Source: an uncultured Gammaproteobacteria bacterium (lineage in GTDB: Bacteria > Patescibacteriota > Microgenomatia > Levybacterales > UBA12049). Taken from it: a stretch of 64,000 bases of DNA. The stretch covers positions 90,172 to 154,171 of the forward strand of contig CAYQEJ010000002.1 in assembly GCA_964416505.1 (NCBI GenBank), in the 5' to 3' direction. The notes below the pieces were generated by a model. It saw only the letters and a list, made by a program, of their open reading frames with translations. It made no database searches and was not told the origin of the DNA. Both the position numbers and the translations under genes were made by a program. Each line of letters begins with the position of its first letter. Position 1 is the stretch's first letter. Positions 4,511-42,096 of the stretch are shown here, piece by piece.

Positions 4511-5977
4511 CTACTCCTCTTTTCTGGCAAGAAGAGCAGGAAGTGTTGTTTGCCTAGACATAATTAAACCCACTTCAGCGGGACTAAGATCAGATGGATA
4601 ACCAAACCGCATAAGACCAGCAGCTAATTCTTGAGCATGCTTTTTTTGCTGAAGATTTAAACTTCCCGCACCTCTTTGATCTAAAGCAGCCTTCGCTCTT
4701 ATCCTTTCATAAATAAAAGGAGTCAAAAATCTGGAAACATATTCATCAGCAGCCTTATCTCTCTCATCAGAAGACAAATCAGAGACTTTTGAACCCAACA
4801 AGCTTAAAGCAATATCCCTAAGACTGACATGGATTGGCTCCCGTTGATCATTCATTTCCAAAACTGCTTGTATTATTTTTCTATTAGCTTCTGCTTCTCT
4901 GCGCATCTCCGCTTCAGGATCAGGTACATCTACTCTACTCGGAGCAGGCGAAGCAATGTGAAAGTCTTTTCCTTGAACTGGTTTTAATCCAAACATTCCA
5001 TTTCTTGGATTCTGAACTGATTCAGCTCGCGTTCTACTCAGATCAACTATAATAATTGGGTCTTGAGAAGATAAGCCTCCCGCTTCTTGCTCTTCCCGTG
5101 GATTTCTTAGTATGCTTCTTAAGAAAGTTCTATTGGTGCCTTTTCTAATTCGAATTCTGTCTAAAACTTCTGGGGAAATATTCTCGGGATAACCCTGTGA
5201 AGCTAAATATTCAGTAAAACGCCCCACCTGCTTTAATCTATCTTCAGTTAGACTAGAAGGATCTACTCTGGAAATTTCCAAGTCTCTAATTAAATCTTTT
5301 GTAAAATCACCAATTACCCTAAGCGCATTTCCAAATTGCTGAAATGACTCTGGGGTACCCTTAGGCGGCAACTCACCAGAAAGGATAGCACTTACTGCAT
5401 AAGCGAATTTCCTATACATCAGTCCTCTTCTGTCTCGATCTAAACCAAAAACAGCTTCAATAATTTGTTTTTCCCTAGAAGAAATTTCTAGACTTGCTGT
5501 TCCTTCGAAACTAGCGACTCCTGGAGATGCTACAGCCAAATCCTCATCGTCAGAGAATCCATCCGGCAAGACAACTGGATCATCAAAAAAAGTATCGGGA
5601 CTATCTGGTAATGCAAAAGGGTCTGGCTCATCATCCGGCGTCAAAGCGGTAGGGAGCGCATCTGCAGCCTGTGTAAAAACTAAATCTCCTTCCGATTCTC
5701 CGCCTTTATCTTTAGGCTCAAGTTTAATAGGGTCAAATAAATCTTCTACTGAAATTGGATCTAAGCCCAAACCCATCCTCGCAAATGCGTCCTGAATTAG
5801 ACTTAATCCAGTATAAACATTTCCGCTTTCGCTTAATATTATCTGGTGTCTTCTGGTTGCATCAACTACCGCTTGAGAATCACCTACTGCAAGAGCTTCG
5901 TCAATTCTCCCGCGCGCAGTATCAGCATGCTCTGACAACATACCCTGACTTACTTCTTTAAACCTGCCAAGTGCCAT
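4511..5977 (-). CDS. Large acidic hypothetical protein (488 aa)
   Basis: Long ORF with a D/E/P-rich middle segment. Consensus promoter at 5986-6013. Confidence 0.5.
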   Translation of the reverse strand: MALGRFKEVSQGMLSEHADTARGRIDEALAVGDSQAVVDATRRHQIILSESGNVYTGLSLIQDAFARMGLGLDPISVEDLFDPIKLEPKDKGGESEGDLVFTQAADALPTALTPDDEPDPFALPDSPDTFFDDPVVLPDGFSDDEDLAVASPGVASFEGTASLEISSREKQIIEAVFGLDRDRRGLMYRKFAYAVSAILSGELPPKGTPESFQQFGNALRVIGDFTKDLIRDLEISRVDPSSLTEDRLKQVGRFTEYLASQGYPENISPEVLDRIRIRKGTNRTFLRSILRNPREEQEAGGLSSQDPIIIVDLSRTRAESVQNPRNGMFGLKPVQGKDFHIASPAPSRVDVPDPEAEMRREAEANRKIIQAVLEMNDQREPIHVSLRDIALSLLGSKVSDLSSDERDKAADEYVSRFLTPFIYERIRAKAALDQRGAGSLNLQQKKHAQELAAGLMRFGYPSDLSPAEVGLIMSRQTTLPALLARKEE

Positions 5978-6606: not shown

Positions 6607-6648
6607 AAAAAGATTATGTCAACTTTCTTACACAAAATAAACGACTAG

Positions 6649-7272
6649 TTACTCAAGAGGTTTTTCTACTATTAATAGTTCTGTTCCCCTTACAAATCTC
6701 GGTATAAAACTTGAAGCGACAAAAATATTCTCTTCTACTGCCATTTTGACAAATAAATCCATATCTCTTCCATCTGTCTTTAAATCCTTACCATGATGAA
6801 TTATTGCTCTTCCTCCAGGTTTCAATACTCTTCTTATTTCCCTAATTCCCCTTAGCTGAGCCATCTTTTTCAACCAAATGAAAACAAATGCAGAAAAAGC
6901 AAAATCCTGGCTATTATCTGGAAGAGGAATATCTTCTACGCTACCTAACACAGTGGTTAAACCAGCTGGATTATCCAAAACCTGATGAATTAAATCCAGA
7001 TTTGTCATATGAAGATTTTCACCATATCTATCAACTAGTTCTCTTGACGCAGATGATTTATATCCTCCACCTATCTCTAAAGCATTCACTCTTTGCCCAC
7101 TTGCGACTAACCGATCTAAATTATAAGTAACCTGTTTTCCAAGCGTAATATCTATAGAAAAAAATGGTCTATTGGTAAGCTGCGTAAACCCCGCCTCAGT
7201 GGCTAAAAGTTCTCTTTTTTCAGAAAGAGTAGCTCCAGGAACCATTCTATATTTTGGTCTTTCAGTTGCCAT
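6649..7272 (-). CDS. Class I SAM-dependent methyltransferase, paralogue 1
   Basis: Motif I LEIGGG and post-I/II patterns (VLKPGGRAII). Roughly 35-40% identical by eye to gene 8085..8711. Confidence 0.65.
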   Translation of the reverse strand: MATERPKYRMVPGATLSEKRELLATEAGFTQLTNRPFFSIDITLGKQVTYNLDRLVASGQRVNALEIGGGYKSSASRELVDRYGENLHMTNLDLIHQVLDNPAGLTTVLGSVEDIPLPDNSQDFAFSAFVFIWLKKMAQLRGIREIRRVLKPGGRAIIHHGKDLKTDGRDMDLFVKMAVEENIFVASSFIPRFVRGTELLIVEKPLE

Positions 7273-7352
7273 GACGAGAAATTATATATTATTATAGGTC
7301 TAAATTCAAACTTACACGAAGTCATGAAATACTTAAATGCTATAATTTCGTT

Positions 7353-8111
7353 ATGAAAAAAGTAATAGCTATCGGCGGCGGAGAAATTGGAAGAGATGGA
7401 TATCAAATTGAAACTAGAAAAATTGACCAGGAAATCATAAAACTCTCCGGTAAAAAATCTCCAAAAATTCTTTTTATCCCTACTGCTTCAAGTGACTCCA
7501 AAGGTTATATAAAAAATTTTGAAGATTATTTTGGTAAAGAACTAAAGTGCATTACTGATATTTTATTTTTAAATAAAAATATTAAAAATGATGAGATTAA
7601 AGAAAAAATTTTTAGCGCTGATATTATCTATGTTGGCGGAGGAAACACTTTTAGAATGCTAAGGGCCTGGAAGAGATTTGGAGTCGACAAGTTCCTCAAA
7701 CAAGCGTGGGAAAATGGAATAGTAATCGCAGGACTTAGTGCTGGAGCAATCTGTTGGTTTTCATATGGACATAGTGATTCAAGAAGATTTAAATCAAAAA
7801 ATGTTTCTTGGGATTTTATAAAAGTTACAGGACTTGGATGGTTCCCTTTTATTTTCTGTCCACATTATCATTTTGAAAAAAGAGAAGAAAATTTTCAAAA
7901 ACTAATAAAAAGAGATGGCGGAATAGGACTCGCAATGGATAATAAAACTGCAATAGAAATAGTAGATGATAAATTTAGAATTTTAAAATCAGATGATAGT
8001 GCAAAAGCTTACAAAATTACGAGAGACAAAAAGGATTTAAAAATTGAAGAATTAGAATGCGAAGATTTTAAACCCCTGGAAAATCTAAGTTCTGTGATAA
8101 GGCTTAAATAA
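7353..8111 (+). CDS. Peptidase S51 (dipeptidase E/cyanophycinase-like) family protein
   Basis: KILFIPTAS..., IYVGGGNTFRML and AGLSAGAICWF (nucleophile Ser in GxSAG) are typical of the S51/class-I glutamine amidotransferase-like fold. Confidence 0.6.
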   Translation: MKKVIAIGGGEIGRDGYQIETRKIDQEIIKLSGKKSPKILFIPTASSDSKGYIKNFEDYFGKELKCITDILFLNKNIKNDEIKEKIFSADIIYVGGGNTFRMLRAWKRFGVDKFLKQAWENGIVIAGLSAGAICWFSYGHSDSRRFKSKNVSWDFIKVTGLGWFPFIFCPHYHFEKREENFQKLIKRDGGIGLAMDNKTAIEIVDDKFRILKSDDSAKAYKITRDKKDLKIEELECEDFKPLENLSSVIRLK

Positions 8112-11832: not shown

Positions 11833-13341
11833 ATGAAATTGGCATTTCAAATATTTCTAAATAAAAATATTTTTCCTATTATTTTATTATTCTTTTTTTT
11901 ATTTAATTCCTATTTACAAATAACCTCTAGCTCAATCACATTTGACGAACCAGCACATATAAAATCAGGTCTTGAATGGCTGACTACTGGTTTTTCGAAT
12001 TCAGATCCTTTCACTCCACCTTTTTCAAAAATTCCCTTTGGAATTTATCAGCTGGTTGGATTAAATTTATTTAATGATCCTTTCCTTATTATTCCTAGAT
12101 TCACAAATACAATTTTAACCGCAGTATTTTTTATTTATTTTTATTTTTTTATAAAAAAACAGTTCTCATTTAAAGTTGCAATTATTTCTCTTTTTTTATT
12201 AATAGTTGAGCCAAATGTAATCGGCTACACTCATTTGGCAACGACTGAAACAATGACTATGATTACTTTCTTTTTAGCATTTTCTCAAATTATAATTTTT
12301 ATTCAAAATAAAAAAAATAATCTATTACCTGTCATAATTTCAATAATTTTTTTATATATTACCAAGAGTGTTTTTTTGCCAGCGTTTTTACCTATCATAA
12401 TTTTAGCGAGCCCTAAATTAAAAAAAATTAAATTTAAAAAATTTTTAACTCAATCTTCTTTGGCCTTTTTAGTATTTATTATTCTTATATTACTGATATC
12501 AGGATTTCATACTTATCCTGCTTTCGCAGATAAATTTTCCATTCCCGGAGGAGGAGTGATTAACTCTACTTTTTCGGCAGTGAGTTACGTAGTAAATCCT
12601 AAATTTATTCCTACACGTCAGATAATTTTTATGGGAAATATAAGCCATGAAAGTTCTTATTTATATATTCCACTTTCATTTTTACTAAAAACTTCTCCTC
12701 ATCTGCTCATCCTGCTAACGACAGGAATATTTTTAGTATTATTCAGAAAAATAAAAGATAAAAAAATAATTTTTGGAATAATAACAATTTTTTCCTGTAT
12801 ATCTATAGTTACATTAGGAAACTATAATACTGGCGTAAGACATTTACTCCCTGCTTTCCCGATTATTTCTTTTATTTCAGGTTTTGTGTTATTAGAGTTT
12901 GTTTTGAAAAAATTAAATCTTAAAAAGATTATCATCTCTTCTCTAATTTTTATTTCAATAATAATTTGTTTAAGAAATAAGGACTCACTTGCTTATTTTA
13001 ATCCGGTAATTGGGTCTAAAGAAGGATCCAAAATATTAACAGAAAGTAATTTTGACTGGGGACAAAGCTTGCCATATCTTCAAAAAGAAAATCAGAAAAT
13101 TGATTATTTAGTATCAAGCACGAATGAAGATTCACAAAAATATGGCATATATGCGCCTCCCCTTCCCTCAGATTGGAAATTAAATATCCAAAAATTAAAT
13201 AATAAAAATATATTCATTTCAAATACTGCTTATTACAAATCAGGGCTTTATGAAGAAAATATATTCTCAATAGATAAAGCAGAATACTCCGCAAACAATA
13301 CTTATTTTATTTTTAAAATCCGGGGAAATAATCAGTTTTAA
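11833..13341 (+). CDS. Membrane glycosyltransferase, GT39/ArnT-PMT-like
   Basis: 502 aa with many TM helices. The N-terminal luminal loop carrying a DE motif (FDEPAH) and the overall architecture are typical of dolichyl/undecaprenyl-phosphate-sugar dependent GT-C enzymes. Confidence 0.55.
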   Translation: MKLAFQIFLNKNIFPIILLFFFLFNSYLQITSSSITFDEPAHIKSGLEWLTTGFSNSDPFTPPFSKIPFGIYQLVGLNLFNDPFLIIPRFTNTILTAVFFIYFYFFIKKQFSFKVAIISLFLLIVEPNVIGYTHLATTETMTMITFFLAFSQIIIFIQNKKNNLLPVIISIIFLYITKSVFLPAFLPIIILASPKLKKIKFKKFLTQSSLAFLVFIILILLISGFHTYPAFADKFSIPGGGVINSTFSAVSYVVNPKFIPTRQIIFMGNISHESSYLYIPLSFLLKTSPHLLILLTTGIFLVLFRKIKDKKIIFGIITIFSCISIVTLGNYNTGVRHLLPAFPIISFISGFVLLEFVLKKLNLKKIIISSLIFISIIICLRNKDSLAYFNPVIGSKEGSKILTESNFDWGQSLPYLQKENQKIDYLVSSTNEDSQKYGIYAPPLPSDWKLNIQKLNNKNIFISNTAYYKSGLYEENIFSIDKAEYSANNTYFIFKIRGNNQF

Positions 13342-31042: not shown

Positions 31043-32457
31043 TTAAAATTAATTAAACGTGAGTATTTTCCAATATCAATTGGATAATTTCCAGTAAAAC
31101 ATGCGGTGCATAATTTCTCTTCAGGAACACCTATTGCCCTAAGCAATCCTTTGTATGAAAGATAATATAACGAATCAGATCCGATAAATTTTCTAATATT
31201 TGCGATACTCATATTGGCTCCAATCAAATTTTTTTGTTTTGGAGTATCGATACCATAAAAATCAGGAAATTTTACAGGAGGAGACGAAGAAATCAAGTGA
31301 ACTTTTTTGGCACCATTTTTCTTAAGCATTAATACAAGTTTTTTAGATGTGGTTCCCCTAACTATGGAATCATCAATTACAACTACAGTTTTCCCCTTTA
31401 TAGTTTCTCCAATTGGATTATGCTTCATTTCAACTCCCCTTTCCCTAAGATGTTGATCTGGCATTATGAAAGTTCTTCCAATATATCTATTTTTAGTTAA
31501 AGCAAACTCTAACGGAATTTTTAATTTAGAAGCATATCCAATTGCAGCTGGAACGGAAGAATCAGGAACTGGAATAACCATATCAGCTTTTATGGGATTT
31601 TCCTTAGCAAGTTGAATTCCCATGTTCTTCCTAACCTCATAAATACTTTTTCCCATAAGATAACTATCCGGTCGAGAAAAGTAAACAAACTCAAAAATAT
31701 CTAATTTTAAATTTGGTTGTGCTAACTGATATGACTTAAGACCTTTTGAGCTAACAACAACCATTTCTCCTGGTTTTATATCTCTTAAAACAATTCCATC
31801 AACAGTGTCTATCGCACATGTCTCAGATGAAAAAACGTAACCTCCTCCAAGTCTCCCAATCGAAAATGGTCTTATTCCATATGAATCCCTCACTGCAGCG
31901 ATTTTATCTTTTGTCATTACCAACAAGCAAAATGCACCTTTAAACATAGGGAAAGATTTTTTTATAGCCTCTTCCAGAGATCCGGTCTTAACTAAAAAAT
32001 ATCTTATGATCTGATGCATAAGTTCAGAATCATTCAAACCATCTGTATAAAAACCTTGCTCTTTAAGAAATTTAGAAAGATTATCCGTAACAGGAAGATT
32101 TCCATTGTGTGCTAGAACCAAAACATCATCTGGACCTCTTCTAGATGTTACTGGCTGAATGTGAGTATCGTGTATTCCTCCTGAGGTTGCATATCTATTA
32201 TGACCTATTGCCATGTGACCTTTTAAATTTTTAAAATTCTCCTCATTGTAGACCTGAGCTACTAAACCTTGTCCTTTATGTGTTCTTATTCTTTTTCCAT
32301 TCGATGCAGAAATTCCCGAACTCTCCTGACCTCTGTGTTGAAGTGTATATAATCCGAAATATGTTAATCTAGCAGCTTGAAGACCCTTTCTACCATACAC
32401 GCCAAATAAGGCGCATTTTTCATTTATTTTTTCTGGATCCTTTTTTAAACTCATCAA
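31036..32457 (-). CDS. purF: Amidophosphoribosyltransferase
   Basis: N-terminal nucleophile Cys (CALFGVYG), the glutamine amidotransferase type 2 domain and a PRTase motif (VVVIDDSIVRGTT). Confidence 0.9.
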   Translation of the reverse strand: MMSLKKDPEKINEKCALFGVYGRKGLQAARLTYFGLYTLQHRGQESSGISASNGKRIRTHKGQGLVAQVYNEENFKNLKGHMAIGHNRYATSGGIHDTHIQPVTSRRGPDDVLVLAHNGNLPVTDNLSKFLKEQGFYTDGLNDSELMHQIIRYFLVKTGSLEEAIKKSFPMFKGAFCLLVMTKDKIAAVRDSYGIRPFSIGRLGGGYVFSSETCAIDTVDGIVLRDIKPGEMVVVSSKGLKSYQLAQPNLKLDIFEFVYFSRPDSYLMGKSIYEVRKNMGIQLAKENPIKADMVIPVPDSSVPAAIGYASKLKIPLEFALTKNRYIGRTFIMPDQHLRERGVEMKHNPIGETIKGKTVVVIDDSIVRGTTSKKLVLMLKKNGAKKVHLISSSPPVKFPDFYGIDTPKQKNLIGANMSIANIRKFIGSDSLYYLSYKGLLRAIGVPEEKLCTACFTGNYPIDIGKYSRLINFNC

Positions 32458-33902
32458 CTACTTAGGGCTTCCAAATTTTTTTGATTAAATTCTTTATAAA
32501 TAATTTTTTTACCAGTGATCTTTTGATAAATTTTACTATAACGATTGCTTACTTGTTTTGCAAGAGATTGAGTCATTTTTGGCGGCTCTCCATTTCCTTT
32601 ATATCCTCTTTTTGCATACCAAAGTCTCAAAAATTCTTTATCAAAATTTTCTGGCTCTAGTCCCTTTTTAAAACGATCTACATAGGTCTTTTTTATCCAA
32701 AATCTTGATGAATCTGGTGTATGAATCTCATCAATTAAAATTAATTTCCCTTTTTCATCAATTCCGAATTCATACTTAGTATCAACTAAAATAATTCCGC
32801 CTTTTGCGCAAATTTTTTCTCCTCTTTCAAATAATTTGATCGCTACATTTTTCATCTCTCGCCAAATTTTAGGAGTAACTATTTTTCTTTGAATTATTTC
32901 TTTTTCTGTCAATCTTTCATCATGGCCTTTTTCTGCTTTTGTAGTAGGGGTAACTATTGGTTTTTCCAATTTTTGATTTTTTTTCAGTCCGTCAGGAAAC
33001 TTAATTCCATAAATTACCCTATCGCCTTTTTGATATGAACCCCAAATAGAAGTATCTGTAACGCCTGTAATATAACCCCTAACAACCATCTCTATCGGTA
33101 TGGATTTCACATTCTTAGCAATCATTACGTTTGGATGAGGGATGGAAATCATATGATTTTGGACTATGTCTTTTGTTTTATCAAACCAAAATGCAGATAT
33201 CTGATTTAGTACCGCACCTTTACCTGGTATCAAACCAAGCACGCGATCAAAAGCTGAAATTCTATCAGTTGTGATTAATATTCTCTTTCCATTACTAACA
33301 TAATAATCTCTAACTTTACCCTGATATTTTTTACCAAATCCATTTAAATCCACAGTGTCAATTTTTTTCTTCCTACTTAAAGCTGCTACCATACCATCGT
33401 ACAAAACATCTGGACAAGCCCAAAATGCATCACCAAAAATTTCTGGTTTTTCCACAAGATTTTTCATAAGTAATTTTTTTGAAAATTTTTTAAAACTTAC
33501 AGATTCATGATTTAATTTTGGCTTTTGATCAGATTTAATTTCAAAAATAATAAAATAATGATTTTCATCTCTTCCAAGAATTTTTCTCTGGAAAATTGTT
33601 TTACCAATATATTTATACTTAAATTTTGAGATTCCCAGTTCTTCCAAAGCTTCTCTTTTTAAAGCATCTTCATAGGATTCACCAGAACGAATATGTCCTC
33701 CAACGGGAGAAACATATTTTCCTGGATCCTGCCTATCTTTTGCTTGCTTCACTAAAAGAAAATTTCCTTTAGAATCAATTACCTGAGCTATAACTATTTT
33801 ATGTAGCAATCCCTTTTTATGAGCTGCTAACTTATCAACTGAATAAGTTTTTTTCAAATTCTTATCTACAATATCAATTTTTTCTAAATTATTATTTTTC
33901 AT
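32454..33902 (-). CDS. purC: NUDIX hydrolase domain fused to SAICAR synthetase
   Basis: N-terminal Nudix box [24 protein letters not shown]. The C-terminal roughly 300 aa are PurC-like (KVRDYYV...[12 protein letters not shown]). Confidence 0.8.
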
Positions 33903-34404
33903 CTAAATATTTTTGGAATCCAAGTTTTTCTAATTTACTCACTTTCTTCAATACTTCTTTTTCCATATTTTTTTTAAATTCTAAAACCTTATTTGCAACT
34001 TTTTTATTTGATATTCCTATAATACTTGCTGCTAAAATCCCTGCATTTTTTGCTCCGTTTACAGCAACAGTCGCGACAGGAATCCCGGGTGGCATTTGAA
34101 CAATAGATAGAAGCGAATCCATTCCATCGAATGTTTTACTTTTTACTGGAACTCCAATAACTGGAATATTTGTTAGCGATGCAACCATTCCTGGCAAATG
34201 AGCTGACCCACCAGCTCCGGCAATTATTACTTTCGATTTTTTATTTGCAGATTTAGCAAATTCAAACATTCTCTCAGGAGTTCTATGCGCAGATACTATT
34301 GTAAGTTCATAAGTAACACCTAGTAAATCAAGAATTTCAGCTGCTTCCTTCATAACTCCTAAATCTGAATCGGATCCCATTATTATGGCTACATCTTTTT
34401 TCAT
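33892..34404 (-). CDS. purE: N5-carboxyaminoimidazole ribonucleotide mutase
   Basis: [13 protein letters not shown]...[10 protein letters not shown] and [13 protein letters not shown] match PurE. Confidence 0.9.
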
Positions 34405-35531
34405 ATTTGAAGCGCCTTTCTTGCTTTATTTGCTTTTTGAAGGTTTACCTTAGCAGAATCGCCTACTACAGTAATGTGCCCCATTTTTCTTCCAATCTTC
34501 GAATTTTTCTTATTGTACAAATGGTATGAAACTCCAGGAATTTTTAACGCTTTTTCAATTCCCTTAGGATGACCTGACCCTTCATGTTCACCCAGAATAT
34601 TTTTCATAACTGCTGATTTTACAATTAGATCTGTCGAACCAAGAGGAAGTCCAGTAATTGCTCTTATATGTTGCTCAAACTGAGAAGTAACGCTCGCCTC
34701 AATTGTATAGTGACCAGAATTATGTACCCTTGGAGCGATTTCGTTTATTAAAACTTTTCCATCTTTCGTTAGAAACATTTCAATCCCGAATACCCCAGCT
34801 CCTTTAAGTGAATTCATCGTTTTCTTAGCTAATGCTTGCGCTTTTTTATTTGAAATACTAGAGACCTTAGCTGGCACAATAACTGTGTCACAAACACTAT
34901 TTACATGAATTGTCTCTACTACTGGATATACTTTAATTTCTCCATTTACGCTTCTTGCAACCATAACAGCAAGCTCTTTAACAAAAGGAACAAACTTTTC
35001 TACATAAAGTTTTCTATCTTTTAATTTTTCTAAACCTTTATCAATATCTTTTTTACTTTTTATTAAAAAATTTCCTTTTCCATCATATGCATCTTCGCGA
35101 GCTTTTAACAAAACCGGTAAACCGAAATTTTCAATTGCTTTTTCAATTTCATTTTTATTTTCAACAGCAATAAAATCTGCAACAGGAATTTTATTTTTCT
35201 TTAAAAATTCTTTTTGCCTAAGCTTATCTTTAATTATTGAAATTGTTTTTGGAGATGGATGAACTTCTTTTTTCTTTGCAATTTCCTCAAGAACTTCGTC
35301 ATTCACAAATTCTGCATCAATTGTGATAATGTCAGAAATTTTTGCTAACTCTCTGGTAACATTCTCATCTTTATAACCACCTATTAATTGCTTGTCAGCA
35401 ATCTGACCAGCGGGGCTTTCGGGGGTGGGATCAGTAACAACTACCATGAATCCCATTTTTTTTGCAGCAATCGTTAGCATCTTAGCGAGTTGTCCTCCAC
35501 CCACAATGCCTATTGTTGCTGGATAAGTCAT
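34401..35531 (-). CDS. purK: N5-carboxyaminoimidazole ribonucleotide synthetase
   Basis: ATP-grasp with an [13 protein letters not shown]-terminus. TGA stop overlaps the purE start. Promoter TTGACA-16-TAAAAT upstream. Confidence 0.85.
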
Positions 35532-35586
35532 GCTTTGATTTTATTTTTTTTCTAGAAATTGTCAATGGGTTATCTTTTCAACCAAA

Positions 35587-37242
35587 TTACCAACTTCCTC
35601 CTCCGCCACCCCCTCCTCCGCCACCAGAAAAACCTCCTGAAGACCCACTGGAGGAAGAAGGAGCAGACGTTGTCATATTAGAGCTAACTGAACTATAAAA
35701 AGCGCCATAAGATAAATAGAAATTTCCATGATATCCACTGTACCACGTAGGATTATAATCTGGTTTTATAATTTTTAATTGATCCATGAATTTGTCTATA
35801 TATCCAAGCGCCATGGCGTACGGAATCATTTGCTCAACTGTGTAAAATTTCTTTGCCTGCCATTCATAATTTCTATCCATACTTTTAAGAAACAGTTTTA
35901 GTCCATCAATTTTGAAATCTATTTCATCTCCAAGCGCAGTTCTTCCAATTAACTTTCTTGATAAATAAATTAGAACAATTCCCAGAATAAAACCTCCGCT
36001 AAAAAGCGCAATCATACCTAAAACTACAAGAAGTCCTTTTTGAATTTTAGGGTTTTTAAAATAATATTTTTTATCTACAAGCTCTTTAAAAATATCATCT
36101 TCCATACTCTGAAATGTTTTATAGAAATCTTTTTTTAAATCTTCAGCAAGGACACTTTGCCCATCTTCAAAAAGCCTGTCGAAAACTCGTTCTTCAAATT
36201 TACTAAAAGTCTTATCTCTTTCTTTTAATTTTGTAATTTTTTGTTCTACTTTATCTGGACGAAGTTGTTTTTTTATTTTTATTTCCTCAAGTTTTATATA
36301 TTTTCTGATTGCCAAATCAAAAATAGTCGCTACTACGTCATCTCTCTCAAGTTTTGCACTATCTATTGTTCCTGAAATCGCGGGAGCAATTCGTTTACCA
36401 AATTCATCTTTTGGAATGTCAAAATTTACAGATGGGGGGCCAAATCTTTTTTTATTTTTCTTTTTTTCATACCAGATCATTAGGACAATTGGTAAAACTA
36501 AATTTATAAATAAAAAAATTAACCAAATATTTTTTAAGAAAGTCTCACCTATTTTTTCTGATGTGGTCTTTGGCAATTCTTTGTATAGAACACTGGGAGG
36601 AAACGTTCCTTTTGGAAAAACTGCTACTCCCGTTAGACCATAGCCCGGATAAAGAATTTGTCCAGATGAAATTACGCCTTTATTAATTGAACAACTTTTA
36701 TCTTTTCCTCCATATGCGCCTTCATAACAAATATAATTCGTGGGTTTGATATTAAAATCAGAATTAATTTTTAAACTTGCTTTATTAATTGTCGCTTCCC
36801 ATTCATTACCAGTCGCATTCCAATAAATCTCATCATAATCAGGGAAATTACTACCGATACCATTTTGCACTGTGTACGAAATTTTATATAAATGTTCTCC
36901 AGTTATAGTCTTGTTGGCATTTCCAATTTTAAAAGAAATTTTTTCTTTAGAATTTGTAGTTTCAAATTTTTCTTTTTTTCCGTCACGCTCTATAAGAACA
37001 TTTTGTATTTTAATGATTCTATATAAATCTCCTACTTTTGAAAAAAGCGGTATATCTCTATAAATTCCATGACGTGACGAGTAACCAAAATCGTATTGAA
37101 TATTTTCAACAACATCCATTGATCCATCTTTATGCGCTGTAAGACTTACATCAAAAGAATTTATTTCTTCAGCGAATGCAGATGGGGCAATAAAAAACAA
37201 ATACAGAACAAAAGTAAGAACAATAAAAAAAATCTTCTTCAT
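35587..37242 (-). CDS. DUF2207-family membrane protein with Gly-rich C-terminal tail
   Basis: Signal peptide MKKIFFIVLTFVLYLFFIAPSAFA, a large extracellular domain, TM helices and a C-terminal SGGFSGGGGGGGGGGSW tail characteristic of DUF2207. Confidence 0.55.
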   Translation of the reverse strand: MKKIFFIVLTFVLYLFFIAPSAFAEEINSFDVSLTAHKDGSMDVVENIQYDFGYSSRHGIYRDIPLFSKVGDLYRIIKIQNVLIERDGKKEKFETTNSKEKISFKIGNANKTITGEHLYKISYTVQNGIGSNFPDYDEIYWNATGNEWEATINKASLKINSDFNIKPTNYICYEGAYGGKDKSCSINKGVISSGQILYPGYGLTGVAVFPKGTFPPSVLYKELPKTTSEKIGETFLKNIWLIFLFINLVLPIVLMIWYEKKKNKKRFGPPSVNFDIPKDEFGKRIAPAISGTIDSAKLERDDVVATIFDLAIRKYIKLEEIKIKKQLRPDKVEQKITKLKERDKTFSKFEERVFDRLFEDGQSVLAEDLKKDFYKTFQSMEDDIFKELVDKKYYFKNPKIQKGLLVVLGMIALFSGGFILGIVLIYLSRKLIGRTALGDEIDFKIDGLKLFLKSMDRNYEWQAKKFYTVEQMIPYAMALGYIDKFMDQLKIIKPDYNPTWYSGYHGNFYLSYGAFYSSVSSNMTTSAPSSSSGSSGGFSGGGGGGGGGGSW

Positions 37243-37264
37243 TACCAAAATTATACACGAGATT

Positions 37265-38059
37265 TTGTATAATCTTATAATGAATTTAATCACTCTTAAT
37301 ACATGGGGTGGAAAAGCTCTAGAGCCACTACTTGATTTCATTTCAAAAAAATCATCTAAAGTAGATATTTTTTGCTTTCAAGAGATATATGACTCATCGA
37401 TATCCAAAAATACTCCTTCTGAATTCCGAGCAAATCTTTTATCTGAAATAAAAAATATATTACCTGGATACCATTATTTATATTCACCACAGTTTAGTGG
37501 TCGTGAATTCCATGCAAAAGTTGATTATCCACTTTCTCAAGGCTTAGCTACATTTTGGAAAAAAGATTTAGAAATAAAAAGCAAAGGAGACATTTTTTTA
37601 TTTGCACAAAAAGATGAAATAATTGAAGTGCCAGGTGAAGATTTTATTATCCCGCCTCGAAATATTCAGTATTTAATTTTTGAAAATTTTATGTGTCTGA
37701 ATCTACACGGATACTGGGCTCCTCTTCCAAAATTCGACACTCCTCAAAGATTAGAACAATCCATAAAAATAATTGAGTTCATTAAGAAGATAAATTTGCC
37801 AGTTATTTTATGTGGAGATTTTAATCTTGGAATAAACACTCAATCTATTTTAATGTTTGAAAATTTTGGACTAGAAAATTTAGTTAGAAAATATAAATTA
37901 AAAACAACAAGAACTAATCTATATGATGAAAAATGGAAAAAGTTTGATGAATTCGCCGATTATATTTTTACAAAAGATATTAAAATAAACGTTTTTAAAA
38001 CTATGAATGATGATATCTCTGATCACTTACCACTTTTTCTCGAATTTGAGCTAAAGTAA
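37265..38059 (+). CDS. Endonuclease/exonuclease/phosphatase (EEP) family protein
   Basis: LNTWGG N-terminus, FCFQE and a C-terminal SDHLPL, as in EEP family catalytic motifs. Confidence 0.65.
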
Positions 38060-39575
38060 CAGGAGAAACAAGCTCTAACGCATTTTGCAAAGAAGTTACG
38101 ACTGTTGGATTATAACCTTTAGAGAGCAACTTCAAATATGCTCCTCGTACTCTATCCAACGAGAGCTGATCATCTATTACGGCTTCCACTTCCTCTTTCA
38201 CATAACGATTGTCCCTGTAATAATAGCTAACTGGATGAGCATTCCTTAGGTGTTCACTTAACTCATCAATAATTCTTTTATCTGGTACGTGGAGCAAAAT
38301 CCTCGTATTATCATTTCCACGTTGTAATCCTACTATTAATTCAAAGAGCTTTGATCTATCTACACCTTCCTCCAAATCTGCTTCAGTTAACCCAAGCATT
38401 GTCACTCCTATTGCCCTCCTCCATGACTCCGGTGGAACACCCAATGTATGCCAGGTTCTGTCTTCAATTGGACGTTCTGAAATATGCTCAACTAAATCCA
38501 AATCCCCATCTCTCAATTGAACCTCAGCACTACCAATTCCCATTGCTCTCAAGATTGCATTTCTTCTTTGTCTAGCCTTTTCAAGCTGCATTTCTCTTTG
38601 TCTTTCGCTGGTCGAATAAACTCGCTCGTCTCCTGAATAAACATGATCTCCCAATGATATCTGCATTCGATGCGTTAATTTTCTTAAAGCTTTCCTCTCA
38701 ATCTGCCTAATTCTTTCCCGGGTAACATTGAAAGCTCTGCCTAATTCTTCATAGGTCATAACCCCCGTACCGTTAAATCCAAATCTTGAAATTATTACCT
38801 GCTTTTCTCTATCTTTAAGGTCTCCCATTGCACTAATTATTGCAATTTCAGCTTCGCTCTTAAAACCTTCCATAGGCTTATAACTACCATCATCTGCTTC
38901 CTGCAATTCTCCGCTTGAGACAATTAATTTGTCGACATATTTTTCAACTTCATCTTTTTGCTCTCCAAAAGCTTCGACAATTTCCATAACTAATTCTTCA
39001 CGGCTATAATGAGACTGAATCCCAGACATAACAGCTTCCTTAATATTTAAATATTTTCCTGATCTAATCCAACCGAGTGGCATACTTTCCCTATCTGCAA
39101 TAAAACGCATTGCACCTTTTTGGATTAAATTAGGTACCATCCAGTTACTATGGTCTGTATAGTCAGCTGCGTTTTGAAAATAATTATCAATTCCTGCATG
39201 AAGCGCTTCTCCATCAAAATCTTCATCACCACTTGAAAAAGAATCAATTACTGATACAGCACTCCTCATTCTAAGAAAAAGCAGTGTCCTTTTTGCATTT
39301 GCTGAAGTATCAGGATCTTCGGACTTCATGTCAGAAATTAGACTATCGCTTACTGATTTAGGGATTCGAAAATCTACCAACTGAGCATACCTCCTATAAA
39401 ATGCCATAGGACTTATATCTGGTGCTTCTGCATATATTTCGGTAGCTAAATTTGTAGTAAGATCTCCAAGATTTTCTATAGAGCCGGATCTAACTTCCCT
39501 GGCAAGCATTATAGCTCTCGTATTTGGATCCCTAGCTTGATCTAATGGATTTGGTCTTAAGGCCTCAATTAACAT
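38001..39575 (-). CDS. Sigma-70 family protein with long N-terminal region and an unusual ~210-aa extension C-terminal to region 4.2
   Basis: [15 protein letters not shown]...LGWIRSG is a diverged region 2.2/2.3. [12 protein letters not shown]...[28 protein letters not shown] is a canonical region 4.1/4.2 HTH. Another 210 residues follow it. Composition differs from the neighbours. Confidence 0.6.
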
Positions 39576-39611
39576 CTGGGAATTATACTATAAGACGTAA
39601 TAGATAACAAG

Positions 39612-40310
39612 CTAAATTTTGCCTTCGAGGTATTTTTTGCGGGTACTTTCAGGAAATTTTTCAATAGAATATCGAAGCGCAGTTCTACCCATCAGCTTAT
39701 AATTTTCCTTTAGAAATTCTTCTTCTGTTTTTAAATCTTTCTTTCCAATTTCCCTTAACATCCACCCAAGTGCTTTTTGTATAAGATCATTTTGATCACT
39801 AATTAGTAATCCCGCGAGTTTTAAAGAATCCTCAAAGTCTCCTCTTCTTATAAAATTAAAAGTTGAAATTAAGGCAATTCTTTTTTCCCATAAATTCTTT
39901 GATTTTGCTAAAGTAAATAATATATTTCTGGGTTTATCCAATAAATATCCTCCTACTATTTTATGTGCTGAAAGATCAACTAAATCCCAGTTGTTAATAA
40001 ATTTTGTGTTTTTAAGATAGAACTCATAAATTCTTCTCTCTAACATTTCTACGTGCTCAAATTGATGTACTAAAATAAGAAGCGCTATTAACCTCTCTTC
40101 ATGAATTTCAGATCTTAATAATTGTCCTATATCTTCGAAAGTTAAATCTTTATACTTAAGCGCAATTTTTCTGCACTGAGGAACTGAAAGACCAAGAAAT
40201 ATATCTCCAAAACCATACTCACCTTCTCCAGTTTTAAAATATCCCGCCATAAGCTTCGCTCTTTTTTTACTTCCTAGCTTTTGGGTTTCTTGTTGGAGAT
40301 TTGTTAACAT
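39612..40310 (-). CDS. DNA alkylation repair glycosylase, AlkD/AlkC-like HEAT-repeat protein
   Basis: KRAKLMAGYFKTGEGEYGFGD and the helical-repeat architecture match PF08713 DNA_alkylation proteins. Confidence 0.6.
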   Translation of the reverse strand: MLTNLQQETQKLGSKKRAKLMAGYFKTGEGEYGFGDIFLGLSVPQCRKIALKYKDLTFEDIGQLLRSEIHEERLIALLILVHQFEHVEMLERRIYEFYLKNTKFINNWDLVDLSAHKIVGGYLLDKPRNILFTLAKSKNLWEKRIALISTFNFIRRGDFEDSLKLAGLLISDQNDLIQKALGWMLREIGKKDLKTEEEFLKENYKLMGRTALRYSIEKFPESTRKKYLEGKI

Positions 40311-40321
40311 TTGTACGCTGT

Positions 40322-40397
40322 ATTTTACTCTTTTTTGAGGCTAAAGTCAATTTTATTTGTAACCTTACTTGACAAAAATATTCATTAAGAATATCTT
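40322..40397. promoter_or_regulatory. Divergent promoter pair
   Basis: Plus strand: TTGACA at 40369-40374, 17 nt spacer, TATCTT at 40392-40397, serving the gene at 40408. Minus strand: TTGACT (rc of 40345-40350), 17 nt spacer, TAAAAT (rc of 40322-40327), serving the gene starting at 40310. Confidence 0.45.
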
Positions 40398-40407
40398 GAA
40401 ATAACTA

Positions 40408-41511
40408 ATGAAAAGTCGAAACTTTTTTATCATTGGCATATCTATAATTTTAATTCTTTTTTTTGTTTTTCAAAAAAAAGAAAAGATAAATAATCCTTTG
40501 ACAAATTCTTCAATTCCCCAAAAAACTACTAATGATAAGGTTAGTATTTTAGCAAAAAACCTTGACACGCCATGGTCACTTGCCTTTCTACCAAACCATG
40601 ATTTAATTTTTACAGAAAGAAAAGGATCACTAAATCTTATATCAAATAATAATATTACGAAAATTGATGATATAGAAGATGTTTTAGAGTATGGCGAAGG
40701 TGGACTAATGGGAGTCGAAGTTCATCCAAATTATAAGAAAAATAAATTTATTTATTTGATGTACACATTTAGAGGATCAGGAAATAACACCTTAAATAGA
40801 TTAGTCCGCTACAAATTAGAAAATAATAAATTATCTGATAAAAAAATTATAATAGATAATATTCCAGGGGCAATTTATCATAATGGAGGAAAAATTAAAT
40901 TTGGCCCCGACGGATTTCTTTATATTACAACAGGTGACTCACTGGAGCCCTCACTCGCACAGAATAAAAATTCTCTTGCTGGAAAAATTCTTAAAATTAC
41001 AGATGATGGCAAACCAGCACCCGGAAATCCTTTTAACAACTTAATTTACTCTTATGGGCACAGAAATCCACAAGGAATAACTTGGGATTCAGATGGAAAT
41101 TTATGGGAAACTGAACATGGAAGATCAAATCCTAGCGGTTACGATGAACTAAATTTAATAGTAAAAGGTGCAAATTATGGTTGGCCTGAAATTCAAGGAA
41201 CTGAAAAAAAATCTGGCATGCAAACTCCCCTAGCTCAAAGTGGAAACGAGACGTGGGCCCCCGGAGGAATAATATTTTTTAAGGATGAATTATTTTTTGG
41301 AGGACTTAAAGGAGAAAGTTTATACAAAGTAAAAATAGAAAATGAAAACGCAATAATTAATAAACTTTTTCTAAATCAGTTTGGGAGAATTAGAGATGTT
41401 ATCTTAGGCCCCGATAATTTTATCTATATCACCACTAGTAATTTAGATGGTAGAGGATCTCCAAAATCAGGAGATGATAAAATAATCAAAATAGATCCAC
41501 AAGATATTTAG
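40408..41511 (+). CDS. Soluble PQQ-dependent aldose sugar dehydrogenase (YliI/sGDH family)
   Basis: N-terminal anchor followed by beta-propeller motifs LDTPWSLAFLPN, GPDGFLYITTGD and HRNPQGITWDSDGNLW. Confidence 0.7.
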   Translation: MKSRNFFIIGISIILILFFVFQKKEKINNPLTNSSIPQKTTNDKVSILAKNLDTPWSLAFLPNHDLIFTERKGSLNLISNNNITKIDDIEDVLEYGEGGLMGVEVHPNYKKNKFIYLMYTFRGSGNNTLNRLVRYKLENNKLSDKKIIIDNIPGAIYHNGGKIKFGPDGFLYITTGDSLEPSLAQNKNSLAGKILKITDDGKPAPGNPFNNLIYSYGHRNPQGITWDSDGNLWETEHGRSNPSGYDELNLIVKGANYGWPEIQGTEKKSGMQTPLAQSGNETWAPGGIIFFKDELFFGGLKGESLYKVKIENENAIINKLFLNQFGRIRDVILGPDNFIYITTSNLDGRGSPKSGDDKIIKIDPQDI

Positions 41512-41556: not shown

Positions 41557-42096
41557 TTGCGTTTTATAGTAAATTTACCTTTCTCTTACAAGAATATAAT
41601 AATCAAAATGAGCATACTTCAAAAAATAAATTCGCCACTATTTGATTACGGACATTACAAATTATATGTGAGAACTGATTATAACCAAACATCAATTACC
41701 ATGTTTTTGCAAACTCCTTTCTATCACACCAAATCAGTTCCGAACACTCACGAAATTTTAAATAATATTCTTCCTCAGGTTCTCAAGAACAAATGTTTCA
41801 ATGATTCAAATCTACCCTTTAAAGAAGAGGTAAAAAATACAGAAATTGGACATTTATTTGAACACATCATTCTTGAATATTTATGTCAAATTAAAGTAAG
41901 AAATGGATACAGAAAAGCAAGTTTTAGTGGATTAACAGAATGGGATTGGAAGAAAGATTTAAAAGGAACATATCATATTAAAATAAAAATTGATCCTACC
42001 GATTTGATATTTTTTAATAAAGCCCTTAATGAAAGCGTAATACTTTTAAATAAAATTTTGATAAGCGCATACTCAAAGCAAATCACAATTAACTAA
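41557..42096 (+). CDS. Hypothetical protein
   Basis: ORF; the real start may be the internal MSILQK at about 41608. Followed by a hairpin terminator. Confidence 0.4.
   Translation: MRFIVNLPFSYKNIIIKMSILQKINSPLFDYGHYKLYVRTDYNQTSITMFLQTPFYHTKSVPNTHEILNNILPQVLKNKCFNDSNLPFKEEVKNTEIGHLFEHIILEYLCQIKVRNGYRKASFSGLTEWDWKKDLKGTYHIKIKIDPTDLIFFNKALNESVILLNKILISAYSKQITIN

Follow-up and report, generated by a model that had tools for sequence, protein, structure and literature searches.

Few bacterial proteins have been studied as thoroughly as sigma factors, whose architecture is regarded as mostly catalogued. Group 1/2 factors such as RpoD, SigA, and RpoS contain regions 1.2, 2.1–2.4, 3.0–3.1, and 4.1–4.2, and the sigma-like protein described here is collinear with them in this order. 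It shares their sigma2 and sigma4 folds and has a near-canonical region 4.2, and most members of its family keep the primary-sigma C-terminal signature LRKLRHPSRS. Unlike RpoD/SigA, it lacks region 1.1 (no match to PF03979 or PF00140), carries ~220 extra C-terminal residues, and has lost the Trp dyad and the readers of region 2.4, and its relatives have an SF2 helicase. The NCBIfam RpoD models give it about 60 bits against cut-offs of 350–570 (best 61 against 555), which places it outside the primary sigma factors.

ECF41, ECF42, ECF44, ECF56, and other ECF groups have regulatory C-terminal extensions (PMC8999054, PMC7671368). The sigma-like protein resembles these in that a sigma70-family protein runs past region 4.2 into an appended, potentially cis-regulatory domain. 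In contrast to ECF factors, which comprise sigma2 and sigma4 only, it has a sigma3-like segment at residues 166–220 and a region 4 that is closest to group 1 models. With this segment and an extension of no known type, it does not belong to the extended ECF groups. Among curated models the best-scoring one is MzaA (NF041931, PDLC02203), the sigma-70-family protein of the MZA anti-phage system. The likeness consists of a long protein with sigma70 region 4 near the C-terminus, whereas the match is restricted to model positions 626–706 of 726, with 77.8 bits where the cut-off is 800 (positions 600–668 of 683 in PADLOC). The relatives match MzaA over region 4 only, and a literature search for MzaA returned only unrelated text. 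The RNA-polymerase-associated SF1/SF2 ATPases RapA/HepA, HelD, and Mfd, and the XPB translocase of eukaryotic TFIIH, bind RNA polymerase by domains other than a sigma-like module. The fused relatives of the sigma-like protein likewise join an SF2 ATPase to a putative RNA-polymerase-binding module, a resemblance of logic only, and the protein studied here differs from all of these in having no helicase.

In the window (the whole 64-kb stretch of DNA that was analysed), the sigma-like protein is encoded at 38001..39575 on the minus strand, as are all parts of it given below, by a single complete ATG open reading frame of 524 aa plus stop. The frame is also uninterrupted in the related loci L001/L002 (79% amino acid identity), L003, and L004/L005, which together with the window represent three independent lineages, and no copy contains a stop or frameshift. 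Between the window and L002, dS is 0.41 and dN/dS is 0.28 for the whole gene, with the lowest value, 0.15, in the C-terminal part; the gene is under purifying selection. A frameshift or fusion artefact, including a tail created as a separate ORF, against which the initial annotation had asked for a check, is ruled out by the same intact frame in these loci and by the dN/dS of the tail. The neighbours have dN/dS of 0.006–0.12 at similar dS, and the sigma-like protein evolves much faster than they do (79% identity compared to 99.6% and 92%). In a trough at 38566..38866 (minus strand), covering region 4 and the next linker, nucleotide identity between the window and L002 is 66–75%, as against 91–100% in the flanks, and dS is 0.97 compared to 0.28–0.44 in the rest of the gene. 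Amino acid identity within this pair is lowest in region 4, at 57%, and region 4 of the window protein resembles RpoD more closely than its L002 counterpart does (74.5 vs. 56 bits). Given this trough, allelic replacement or recombination at the gene is possible.

The sigma4 domain (residues 246–305, 38661..38840) comprises the 4.1/4.2 HTH with a canonical recognition helix. It is recognized both by fold and by Pfam Sigma70_r4 (PF04545; residues 249–300, 55.6 bits against a cut-off of 24.1), which bears out the canonical HTH reported initially. Ahead of it are an acidic disordered linker at the position of region 3.2 (residues 221–245, 38841..38915), which is poorly conserved and has pLDDT of 36–37, and a sigma3-like helical domain corresponding to regions 3.0/3.1 (residues 166–220, 38916..39080), identified by hhalign and by model helices at residues 175–220. 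A phmmer search of the PDB aligns residues 174–303 to Thermus SigA, and phrog_351 matches residues 181–346. Residues 55–165 (39081..39413) form a divergent region 1.2 plus the sigma2 domain (regions 2.1–2.4), and are preceded by a family-conserved helical segment at residues 17–54 (39414..39527; pLDDT 74–82), whose equivalent in the fused relatives is the linker after the helicase.

The family profile is collinear with SigA/RpoD over regions 2.1–4.2 at E 7e-37. Region 4 supplies 116 of about 130 bits in the profile score against PDB sigma factors; when it is left out, hhalign still aligns 153 columns over regions 1.2–3.1 with a probability of 83% and E 9e-6. All 65 Foldseek matches at E ≤ 1e-3 are sigma factors, with 270–370 columns aligned, and the sigma2 fold accompanies collinear homology of regions 1.2–2.4. 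The presence of regions 2.2/2.3 and 3, as claimed before, is borne out only in part: hhalign and, for sigma2, the fold agree with it, whereas neither Pfam (including PF04542 and PF04539) nor NCBIfam detects regions 2 and 3 in the window protein. TIGR02937 reaches 38 bits on it (cut-off 42.9), over region 4 alone; the relatives P0126 (51.3), P0131 (60.7), and P0137 (52.1) pass the same model with coverage of both sigma2 and sigma4. Two details of the initial annotation need correction. The LGWIRSG motif assigned to 2.2/2.3 aligns with region 2.3/2.4 and the start of 3.0, and the N-terminal ~150 residues described as non-conserved are conserved across the family and correspond to sigma regions 1.2, 2.1, and 2.2. 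Its broader view of the gene as a sigma70-family derivative is upheld by the region 4 match, the sigma-collinear family profile, and the sigma2 and sigma4 folds.

A residue census over 52 family members shows which key sigma residues are kept. The core-binding polar positions of region 2.2 are D/E in 49/52 and Q/H in 47/52. The RERIRQIE helix of region 4.2 retains its residues at R (45/52), R (39/52), Q (43/52), and E (43/52), and the residues of 4.2 that read the −35 element are kept across the family. In region 2.3 no member has W at either position of the Trp dyad (0/52), and at the other positions that recognise and melt the −10 element the canonical residue is rare (Tyr 3/52, Gln 1/52, Thr 2/52). 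The absence of the dyad and the near-complete loss of the 2.4 Q/T readers make canonical open-complex formation doubtful. As the family is without these −10 recognition and melting residues of region 2.3/2.4, promoter opening, if any, would have to proceed by a non-canonical route.

The extension past region 4.2 is real, as had been proposed, and comprises ~220 conserved residues after region 4. A tail beyond region 4 is the rule in the helicase-sigma-like family; the conserved tail of roughly 220 residues seen here is confined to a small syntenic clade (window/L002, L003, L004). It begins with a variable linker followed by conserved long helices (residues 306–366, 38478..38660), with R327, E332, and R335 invariant. 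The remaining ~160 residues (367–524, 38004..38477) constitute an orphan alpha/beta domain with the topology beta-beta-alpha-beta-alpha...alpha-beta-alpha, in a model of low confidence (pLDDT 62), and with P369, R373-T374-W375, Y452, and P490 invariant. For the tail, neither sequence nor fold comparison detected any relative; it has no Pfam match at E ≤ 10, and neither a SnoaL, TPR, or zinc-finger domain nor any other recognizable one is present. The anti-sigma-like domain suggested initially, be it an anti-sigma, anti-anti-sigma (STAS-like), or sensor fold, finds no support in this low-confidence model. A tail-alignment profile run against a large protein database returned nothing and is uninformative, the query itself also being missed. 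The tails of other family members contain no Pfam domains and do not match that of the window.

In an exhaustive search, about 50 cluster representatives matched residues 24–305 without a break, at E 1e-10 to 1e-44 (single stretches such as 24–300, 24–304, and 20–508). The family comprises at least 52 clusters, all of them metagenome-only, and in an unbootstrapped NJ tree it is monophyletic with respect to three references of RpoD. An N-terminal SF2 helicase (ResIII plus Helicase_C) is full in 23 of the 52 members and partial in five more. The nearest curated helicase models are RadD and XPB, with scores far under all family cut-offs. No helicase occurs in the window gene or anywhere else in the window, and the L004 gene is also helicase-less. 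The L003 ortholog has its helicase between AlkD and the sigma-like part. In the module tree (NJ, no bootstrap) the window with L002, L003, and L004 form one clade. The protein was not found among GTDB representatives at the sensitivity used, and in a large protein database the module-alignment profile is dominated by RpoD matches through region 4. Searching viral and metagenome contigs with the helicase-fusion alignment yielded only remote helicases (22–28% identity) without the sigma-like module. A literature search for helicase-sigma fusions found nothing relevant, and the helicase-sigma-like family is apparently undescribed. One relative adjoins a BrnT/CopG toxin-antitoxin pair.

A promoter-like TTGTTA-17 nt-TATAAT is located at 39582..39610 (minus strand) and ends 6 nt ahead of the ATG, before which a Shine-Dalgarno sequence is absent. 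A leaderless transcript is predicted for the gene from these features. At the nucleotide level, L002, L004/L005, and L003 share the conserved core CTTATAGTATAATTCCC(C)A(G)ATG, whereas the downstream proteins are only 26–31% identical. The same promoter-start arrangement is found at 12 of the 55 ORFs of the window and is a general start style there. L003 has this conserved leaderless promoter too and keeps its helicase after it, so that the simplest reading of the window gene is a helicase-less derivative of a usually helicase-fused family. The direction, which is drawn from parsimony, remnant motifs, and the unbootstrapped NJ tree, could be two losses or one gain.

The gene is bracketed, as first noted, by AlkD and an EEP nuclease. 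AlkD, of the DNA alkylation repair glycosylase family, lies upstream at 39612..40310 (minus strand; PF08713, E 2.5e-58), has a dN/dS of 0.006, and is syntenic with the sigma-like gene in three of three lineages. Its nearest relatives are 52–61% identical (one 73%) and belong mostly to Patescibacteria and DPANN MAGs. The EEP (Exo_endo_phos) gene is convergent downstream at 37280..38059 (plus strand; PF03372, E 4e-12), and shares 59 nt at its 3′ end with the sigma-like gene; both synteny and overlap are conserved. The EEP protein has no solved homologue by sequence and no assignment to AP endonucleases. The neighbours as a whole are purC/E/K, DUF2207, EEP, AlkD, GSDH, and a histidine kinase. The outer neighbours differ among lineages, with PALP on opposite sides in L003 and L004, and DUF2207 is common to the window and L003 loci. 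The window contains no rRNA or other Rfam match. The compositional distinctness pointed out earlier is evident in GC (0.384 against 0.28–0.34 in neighbours), GC3 (0.27 against 0.19–0.22), and R/(R+K) (0.68 against 0.15–0.35). A recent horizontal insertion in its simple form is unsupported as the cause, as the locus is syntenic in three lineages. Invasion of a widespread AlkD-EEP repair pair by the gene was rejected as well, since 0 of 80 AlkD loci in reference genomes adjoin an EEP or sigma-like gene.

We lean towards reading the gene as a functional, fast-evolving, helicase-less sigma70-family paralogue that derives from a primary-type sigma and acts as an alternative sigma or adaptor docking on RNA polymerase. 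Its core is a complete, highly divergent sigma 1.2-sigma2-sigma3-sigma4, followed by the helical linker and the lineage-specific alpha/beta domain. Most simply, the helicase would have been lost by internal in-frame deletion in the window copy and, in a separate event, in the L004 lineage, with the leaderless promoter and the first codons kept. The protein may dock on the RNA polymerase core via the retained surfaces of regions 2.2 and 4.1; core binding is suggested indirectly by the conserved residues of region 2.2 (49/52, 47/52) and of 4.1/4.2. The canonical 4.2 helix would read a −35-like element, and a protein with both properties would therefore be an alternative sigma or a sigma-like adaptor. 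In this role it could bring an appended domain to RNA polymerase or promoters, namely the C-terminal domain here and the helicase in relatives. On a quite speculative extension, the family may be a new kind of bacterial initiation factor, in which a primary-sigma-derived module that no longer has the −10-melting residues is coupled to an SF2 translocase for ATP-driven promoter opening or RNA polymerase remodelling. The helicase may then sit at the usual place of region 1.1, near the downstream DNA channel. In bacteria, such a family would be an analogue of XPB/TFIIH; within the sigma70 lineage, it would parallel sigma54 and the AAA+ activators of the latter. The protein in the window may be a helicase-less offshoot of it, with the orphan domain giving a different coupling or regulatory activity.

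The same census also fits a fairly unlikely alternative, a non-initiating RNA-polymerase adaptor or decoy that takes the sigma site or −35-like DNA without opening promoters, and that either competes with or represses the primary sigma, or delivers its C-terminal domain, and in relatives the helicase, to stalled or damaged transcription complexes. The family-wide loss of −10 melting and reading residues next to retained 2.2 and 4.2 favours it. However, ECF sigmas melt promoters without the Trp dyad, and the loss is no proof of inability to initiate. Such an adaptor could tie in with AlkD and EEP as a transcription-associated repair module. The AlkD-sigma-like-EEP triad is kept in three lineages with differing outer neighbours, and the fused SF2 helicase is nearest to repair helicases, though far below cut-offs. 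On the other hand, this synteny may be plain vertical inheritance, DUF2207 also being shared by the window and L003; the 80 reference AlkD loci lack both partners, and the EEP protein is not assignable to AP endonucleases. A regulator that is independent of RNA polymerase, using only the sigma4 HTH to bind DNA and the N-terminal part and tail for oligomerisation or sensing, is improbable. A diverse family has kept the sigma 1.2-2-3-4 order together with the sigma2 fold, the polar positions of region 2.2 are conserved, and region 4, in which the window and L002 diverge most, would be an odd choice as sole functional module.

It is highly improbable that the gene is a decaying, functionless remnant of a helicase-sigma fusion, as the missing helicase, the lower identity than in neighbours, and the odd composition might suggest. 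Two helicase-less lineages keep the 524-codon frame intact, the promoter is conserved, and the dN/dS values, above all that of the tail, show constraint. Equally remote is a mobile-element or anti-phage component, either a phage sigma factor or an MzaA-like protein. MzaA as the top match in NCBIfam and PADLOC, the phrog_351 match, the distinct composition and fast evolution of the gene, and the toxin-antitoxin pair beside one relative point this way, but MzaA and phrog_351 align with the sigma3/sigma4 end alone, in query and relatives alike, and membership of either group is ruled out on this basis. Moreover, housekeeping genes surround the gene, and no Mza partner genes (MzaB–E), integrase, or phage genes lie nearby; the chromosomal position is stable in three lineages, and the patterns searched for in IMG/VR turned up no family member.

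The family represents a substantial branch of primary-sigma descendants, seen in metagenomes only, which curated profiles recognize through region 4 alone. It combines recurrent fusion of an SF2 helicase to a sigma-like module with loss of the canonical DNA-melting residues. Its appended C-terminal domains vary, and the one found in the window is a strongly constrained orphan fold. Provided that the module has kept its docking on RNA polymerase, these proteins offer a natural means of attaching ATPases or other effectors to the transcription machinery, and a test case for divergence of sigma2 with its fold kept. For annotation, 'Sigma70_r4-only' proteins can conceal complete sigma cores, and gene calls cut by scaffold gaps can hide fusions. 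The "helicase-less" P0122 proved to be such a truncated gene call, and some other helicase-less members may be likewise.

The sigma-like gene is a single ORF of 524 codons with an ATG start on the minus strand (38001..39575). It begins 36 nt downstream of an AlkD-family gene on the same strand (39612..40310, minus) and converges with an EEP-family gene (37280..38059), so the bracketing described in the initial annotation holds, with a nuclease type that is not assignable to AP endonucleases. Its GC content (0.384 vs. 0.28-0.34), GC3 (0.27 vs. 0.19-0.22), and the Arg/(Arg+Lys) ratio of its product (0.68 vs. 0.15-0.35) all lie outside the ranges of the neighbours, which agrees with its earlier description as compositionally distinct; this odd composition occurs alongside ancient synteny. 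A 523-aa ortholog with 79% identity is present on two Logan contigs in the same AlkD / sigma-like / EEP order, and 4.5 kb can be aligned at 90% nucleotide identity. The full-length frame of this ortholog and the dN/dS constraint along the gene rule out a frameshift or sequencing artefact, and with it the possibility that the tail is a separate ORF. The extension noted earlier is real, and comprises about 220 residues after region 4.2.

Curated profiles recognize one end of the protein. Pfam reports Sigma70_r4 only (residues 249-300, 55.6 bits, cut-off 24.1), and the matches from NCBIfam, PADLOC, and PHROGs are confined to the sigma3/sigma4 end. The assignment of regions 2-4 is thus upheld by curated profiles for region 4, whereas regions 2 and 3 receive no support from them. 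The top curated match is MzaA; it reaches 77.8 bits where 800 are required, and because the sigma3/sigma4 end alone is matched, identity with it is excluded. With 38 bits, the protein stays below the 42.9 needed for the superfamily model TIGR02937. Three family relatives clear the sigma70 superfamily model of NCBIfam, with both sigma2 and sigma4 covered.

A profile of 28 module sequences runs collinear with SigA/RpoD chains over regions 2.1-4.2 (E 7e-37), about 116 of its about 130 bits stemming from region 4 alone. When region 4 was cut from both sides, the HMM-HMM comparison was again collinear (probability 83%, E 9e-6, 153 columns). It places DPVRMYLKEIG of region 1.2 opposite [28 protein letters not shown], region 2.1 opposite GK.VL.FL.LRTILSAVE.F, and DLIQEGNLGL of region 2.2 opposite ELIQAAI, followed by 2.3/2.4 and 3.0/3.1 in order. 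In the AlphaFold2 model, pLDDT is 75-88 over residues 20-220 and 65-78 in region 4, and Foldseek retrieves with it sigma factors only at E <= 1e-3 (65 chains, 270-370 aligned columns). Together with the relatives, these results therefore identify the N-terminus, formerly regarded as non-conserved, as sigma 1.2-2.2, a stretch matched throughout the family, and the motif labelled 2.2/2.3 as 2.3/2.4 plus the start of 3.0.

Conservation was compared across 52 sigma-like modules. In region 2.2, the acidic position is kept in 49 and the Gln/His position in 47, and region 4.1 retains R..V(L/I)..R(F/Y)G. In the 4.2 recognition helix R-E-R-I-R-Q-I-E, the two Arg (45 and 39), Gln (43), and Glu (43) are mostly kept, and the window copy is wholly canonical ([17 protein letters not shown]). 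In sigma70, residues of regions 2.3 and 2.4 recognize and unstack the -10 element. None of the 52 modules has Trp at the two Trp positions of region 2.3, three have the Tyr, and the region 2.4 readers Gln and Thr occur in one and two, respectively. The core-docking and -35-reading surfaces thus appear to be retained and the canonical melting apparatus does not.

Apart from thousands of RpoD proteins that share region 4, a word-indexed search through 5.8 billion clusters yielded just the close ortholog. Exhaustive phmmer against 1.84 billion representatives recovered residues about 24-305 as one stretch in about 50 proteins (21-38% identity), and P0122 (555 aa) and P0124 (529 aa), the sigma-like proteins of two further lineages (contigs L003 and L004/L005), also span the C-terminal extension. 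A complete N-terminal SF2 helicase (Pfam ResIII/DEAD + Helicase_C) is present in 23 of the 52 family members, partial in 5, and missing in 24, a class in which at least some are truncated gene calls. No description of helicase-sigma fusions was found in the searchable literature, where absence is not proof that none exists. One such fusion, P0125 (L086 150-3180), is immediately followed by a BrnT/CopG toxin-antitoxin pair.

Both P0122 and P0124 are encoded in the AlkD / sigma-like / EEP arrangement. Between AlkD and the called gene of L003 lies a 1.36-kb "gap" (6641-8000) that encodes an SF2 helicase 51% identical to that of P0125; its ORF is broken only by an 89-N scaffold gap and runs into MLIPNLFDPYF, the called start of P0122. 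The P0122 call is therefore a truncated helicase-sigma-like fusion, and other database members without a helicase may also be artefacts. In every lineage, the DNA sequence of the spacer from AlkD to the start codon is conserved (TTGTxx-17 nt-TATAAT-TCCC(C)A(G)-ATG). What follows it is the helicase N-terminus (MVTEA...) in L003 and the sigma-like part itself in the window (MLIEA...) and L004 (MISET...); neither a helicase nor any further sigma gene is encoded in the 64-kb window. Since the AlkD identities, like an NJ tree (no bootstrap) built from the module, group the window with L003 and leave L004 outside, two losses by internal in-frame deletion would most simply explain this distribution, and a single helicase gain in L003 is less likely.

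Tails of at least 100 aa after region 4 occur in 29 of the 52 members, and an extension beyond 4.2 is therefore normal in the family. These tails are heterogeneous, and no Pfam domains were found in them. In the window protein, a variable stretch (residues 306-345) gives way to long, conserved helices and an alpha/beta domain (beta-beta-alpha-beta-alpha...alpha-beta-alpha), in which P369, R373-T374-W375, Y452, and P490 are invariant. A tail-alignment profile had no matches in a large protein collection, a negative that is unreliable as even the query's own cluster was missed. Six other members (P0137, P0143, P0165, P0172, P0232, P0145) share a post-region-4 motif, GI(R/K)xIGDFFSASPEEI, which looks like a helix-hairpin-helix and recalls the C-terminal domain of the RNA polymerase alpha subunit; these tails give no Pfam match.

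Against the 523-aa ortholog, dN/dS is 0.28 for the whole gene, 0.29-0.31 for residues 1-240, 0.31 for region 4, and 0.15 for the C-terminal residues 346-524. Neighbouring values at comparable dS (0.28-0.41) are 0.006 (AlkD), 0.105 (EEP), and 0.118 (GSDH); the gene is therefore constrained, yet its protein changes much faster than its neighbours. Identities of AlkD, EEP, and the sigma-like protein fall from 99.6%, 92%, and 79% in L002, one of the ortholog contigs, to 71%, 49%, and 31% in L003 and 66%, 46%, and 26% in L004. Region 4 and the linker after it (38566-38866) form a trough between the window and L002, with 66-75% nucleotide identity and dS 0.97, vs. 91-100% identity in the flanks; the 4.5-kb block outside this trough is 82-100% identical. 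Region 4 of the window is also more RpoD-like than its L002 counterpart (74.5 vs. 56 bits). Such a pattern could reflect recombination or gene conversion involving another sigma gene, or accelerated change in L002.

The window protein works most like a sigma70-family factor and is a superfamily member by fold and region 4. As curated profiles do not recognize its region 2 and the -10 melting residues are missing, it is not filed as a conventional sigma factor of a described group. RpoD identity is excluded by about 60 bits against cut-offs of 350-570. ECF sigma factors with C-terminal extensions are a described class (PMC8999054, PMC7671368); the window protein differs from these in its sigma3-like domain, its group-1-like region 4, and its unrecognizable tail, which exclude this assignment. 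The best-supported reading, slightly more likely than not, takes the protein for a functional alternative sigma or adaptor that docks on RNA polymerase; the protein would descend from a helicase-fused family and carry a constrained orphan C-terminal domain. That the family drives ATP-driven, helicase-assisted initiation or RNA polymerase remodelling is improbable.

The promoter-like element of the gene ends 6 nt before the ATG and no Shine-Dalgarno sequence lies upstream, from which the mRNA is predicted to be leaderless. Of the 55 window ORFs of at least 150 aa, 12 have a TAnAAT hexamer that ends 6-8 nt ahead of the start codon, among them 4511-5977(-), 7353-8111(+), 11833-13341(+), 34401-35531(-), and 38001-39575(-), with <1 expected from base composition, and Shine-Dalgarno-like motifs are rare, which suggests that leaderless mRNAs are widespread in the source organism. 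As this placement is a general style of the window, it gives no sign of autoregulation. The convergent 3' ends of the sigma-like and EEP genes overlap by 59 nt in the window (38001-38059) and L002 (3204-3262), 71 nt in L003 (9598-9668), and 20 nt in L004 (3222-3241); a scan of 37200-40500 revealed no hairpin resembling a terminator.

A link to DNA repair might be suspected from the conserved triad that the gene forms with AlkD and EEP. However, window-L003 synteny also reaches DUF2207, neither partner accompanies AlkD at any of 80 reference-genome loci, and the EEP type, as stated, does not point to AP endonucleases. No phage, integrase, or defence genes surround the sigma-like gene, and its neighbours are housekeeping (purC-NUDIX, purE, purK, DUF2207, GSDH, GAF histidine kinase). 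Among them, the SAICAR synthetase (purC, 32454-33902, minus) has an N-terminal NUDIX domain, an unusual fusion. The DUF2207 membrane protein (35587-37341, minus) has a Ser/Gly-rich C-terminal tail that includes ten consecutive Gly, and the poly-Pro ORF at 35513-35698 (plus) is the antisense shadow of its gene, not a gene. A 179-aa protein (41557-42096, plus) consists solely of a cyanophycin-synthase-like N-terminal domain (PF18921, E 2e-7).
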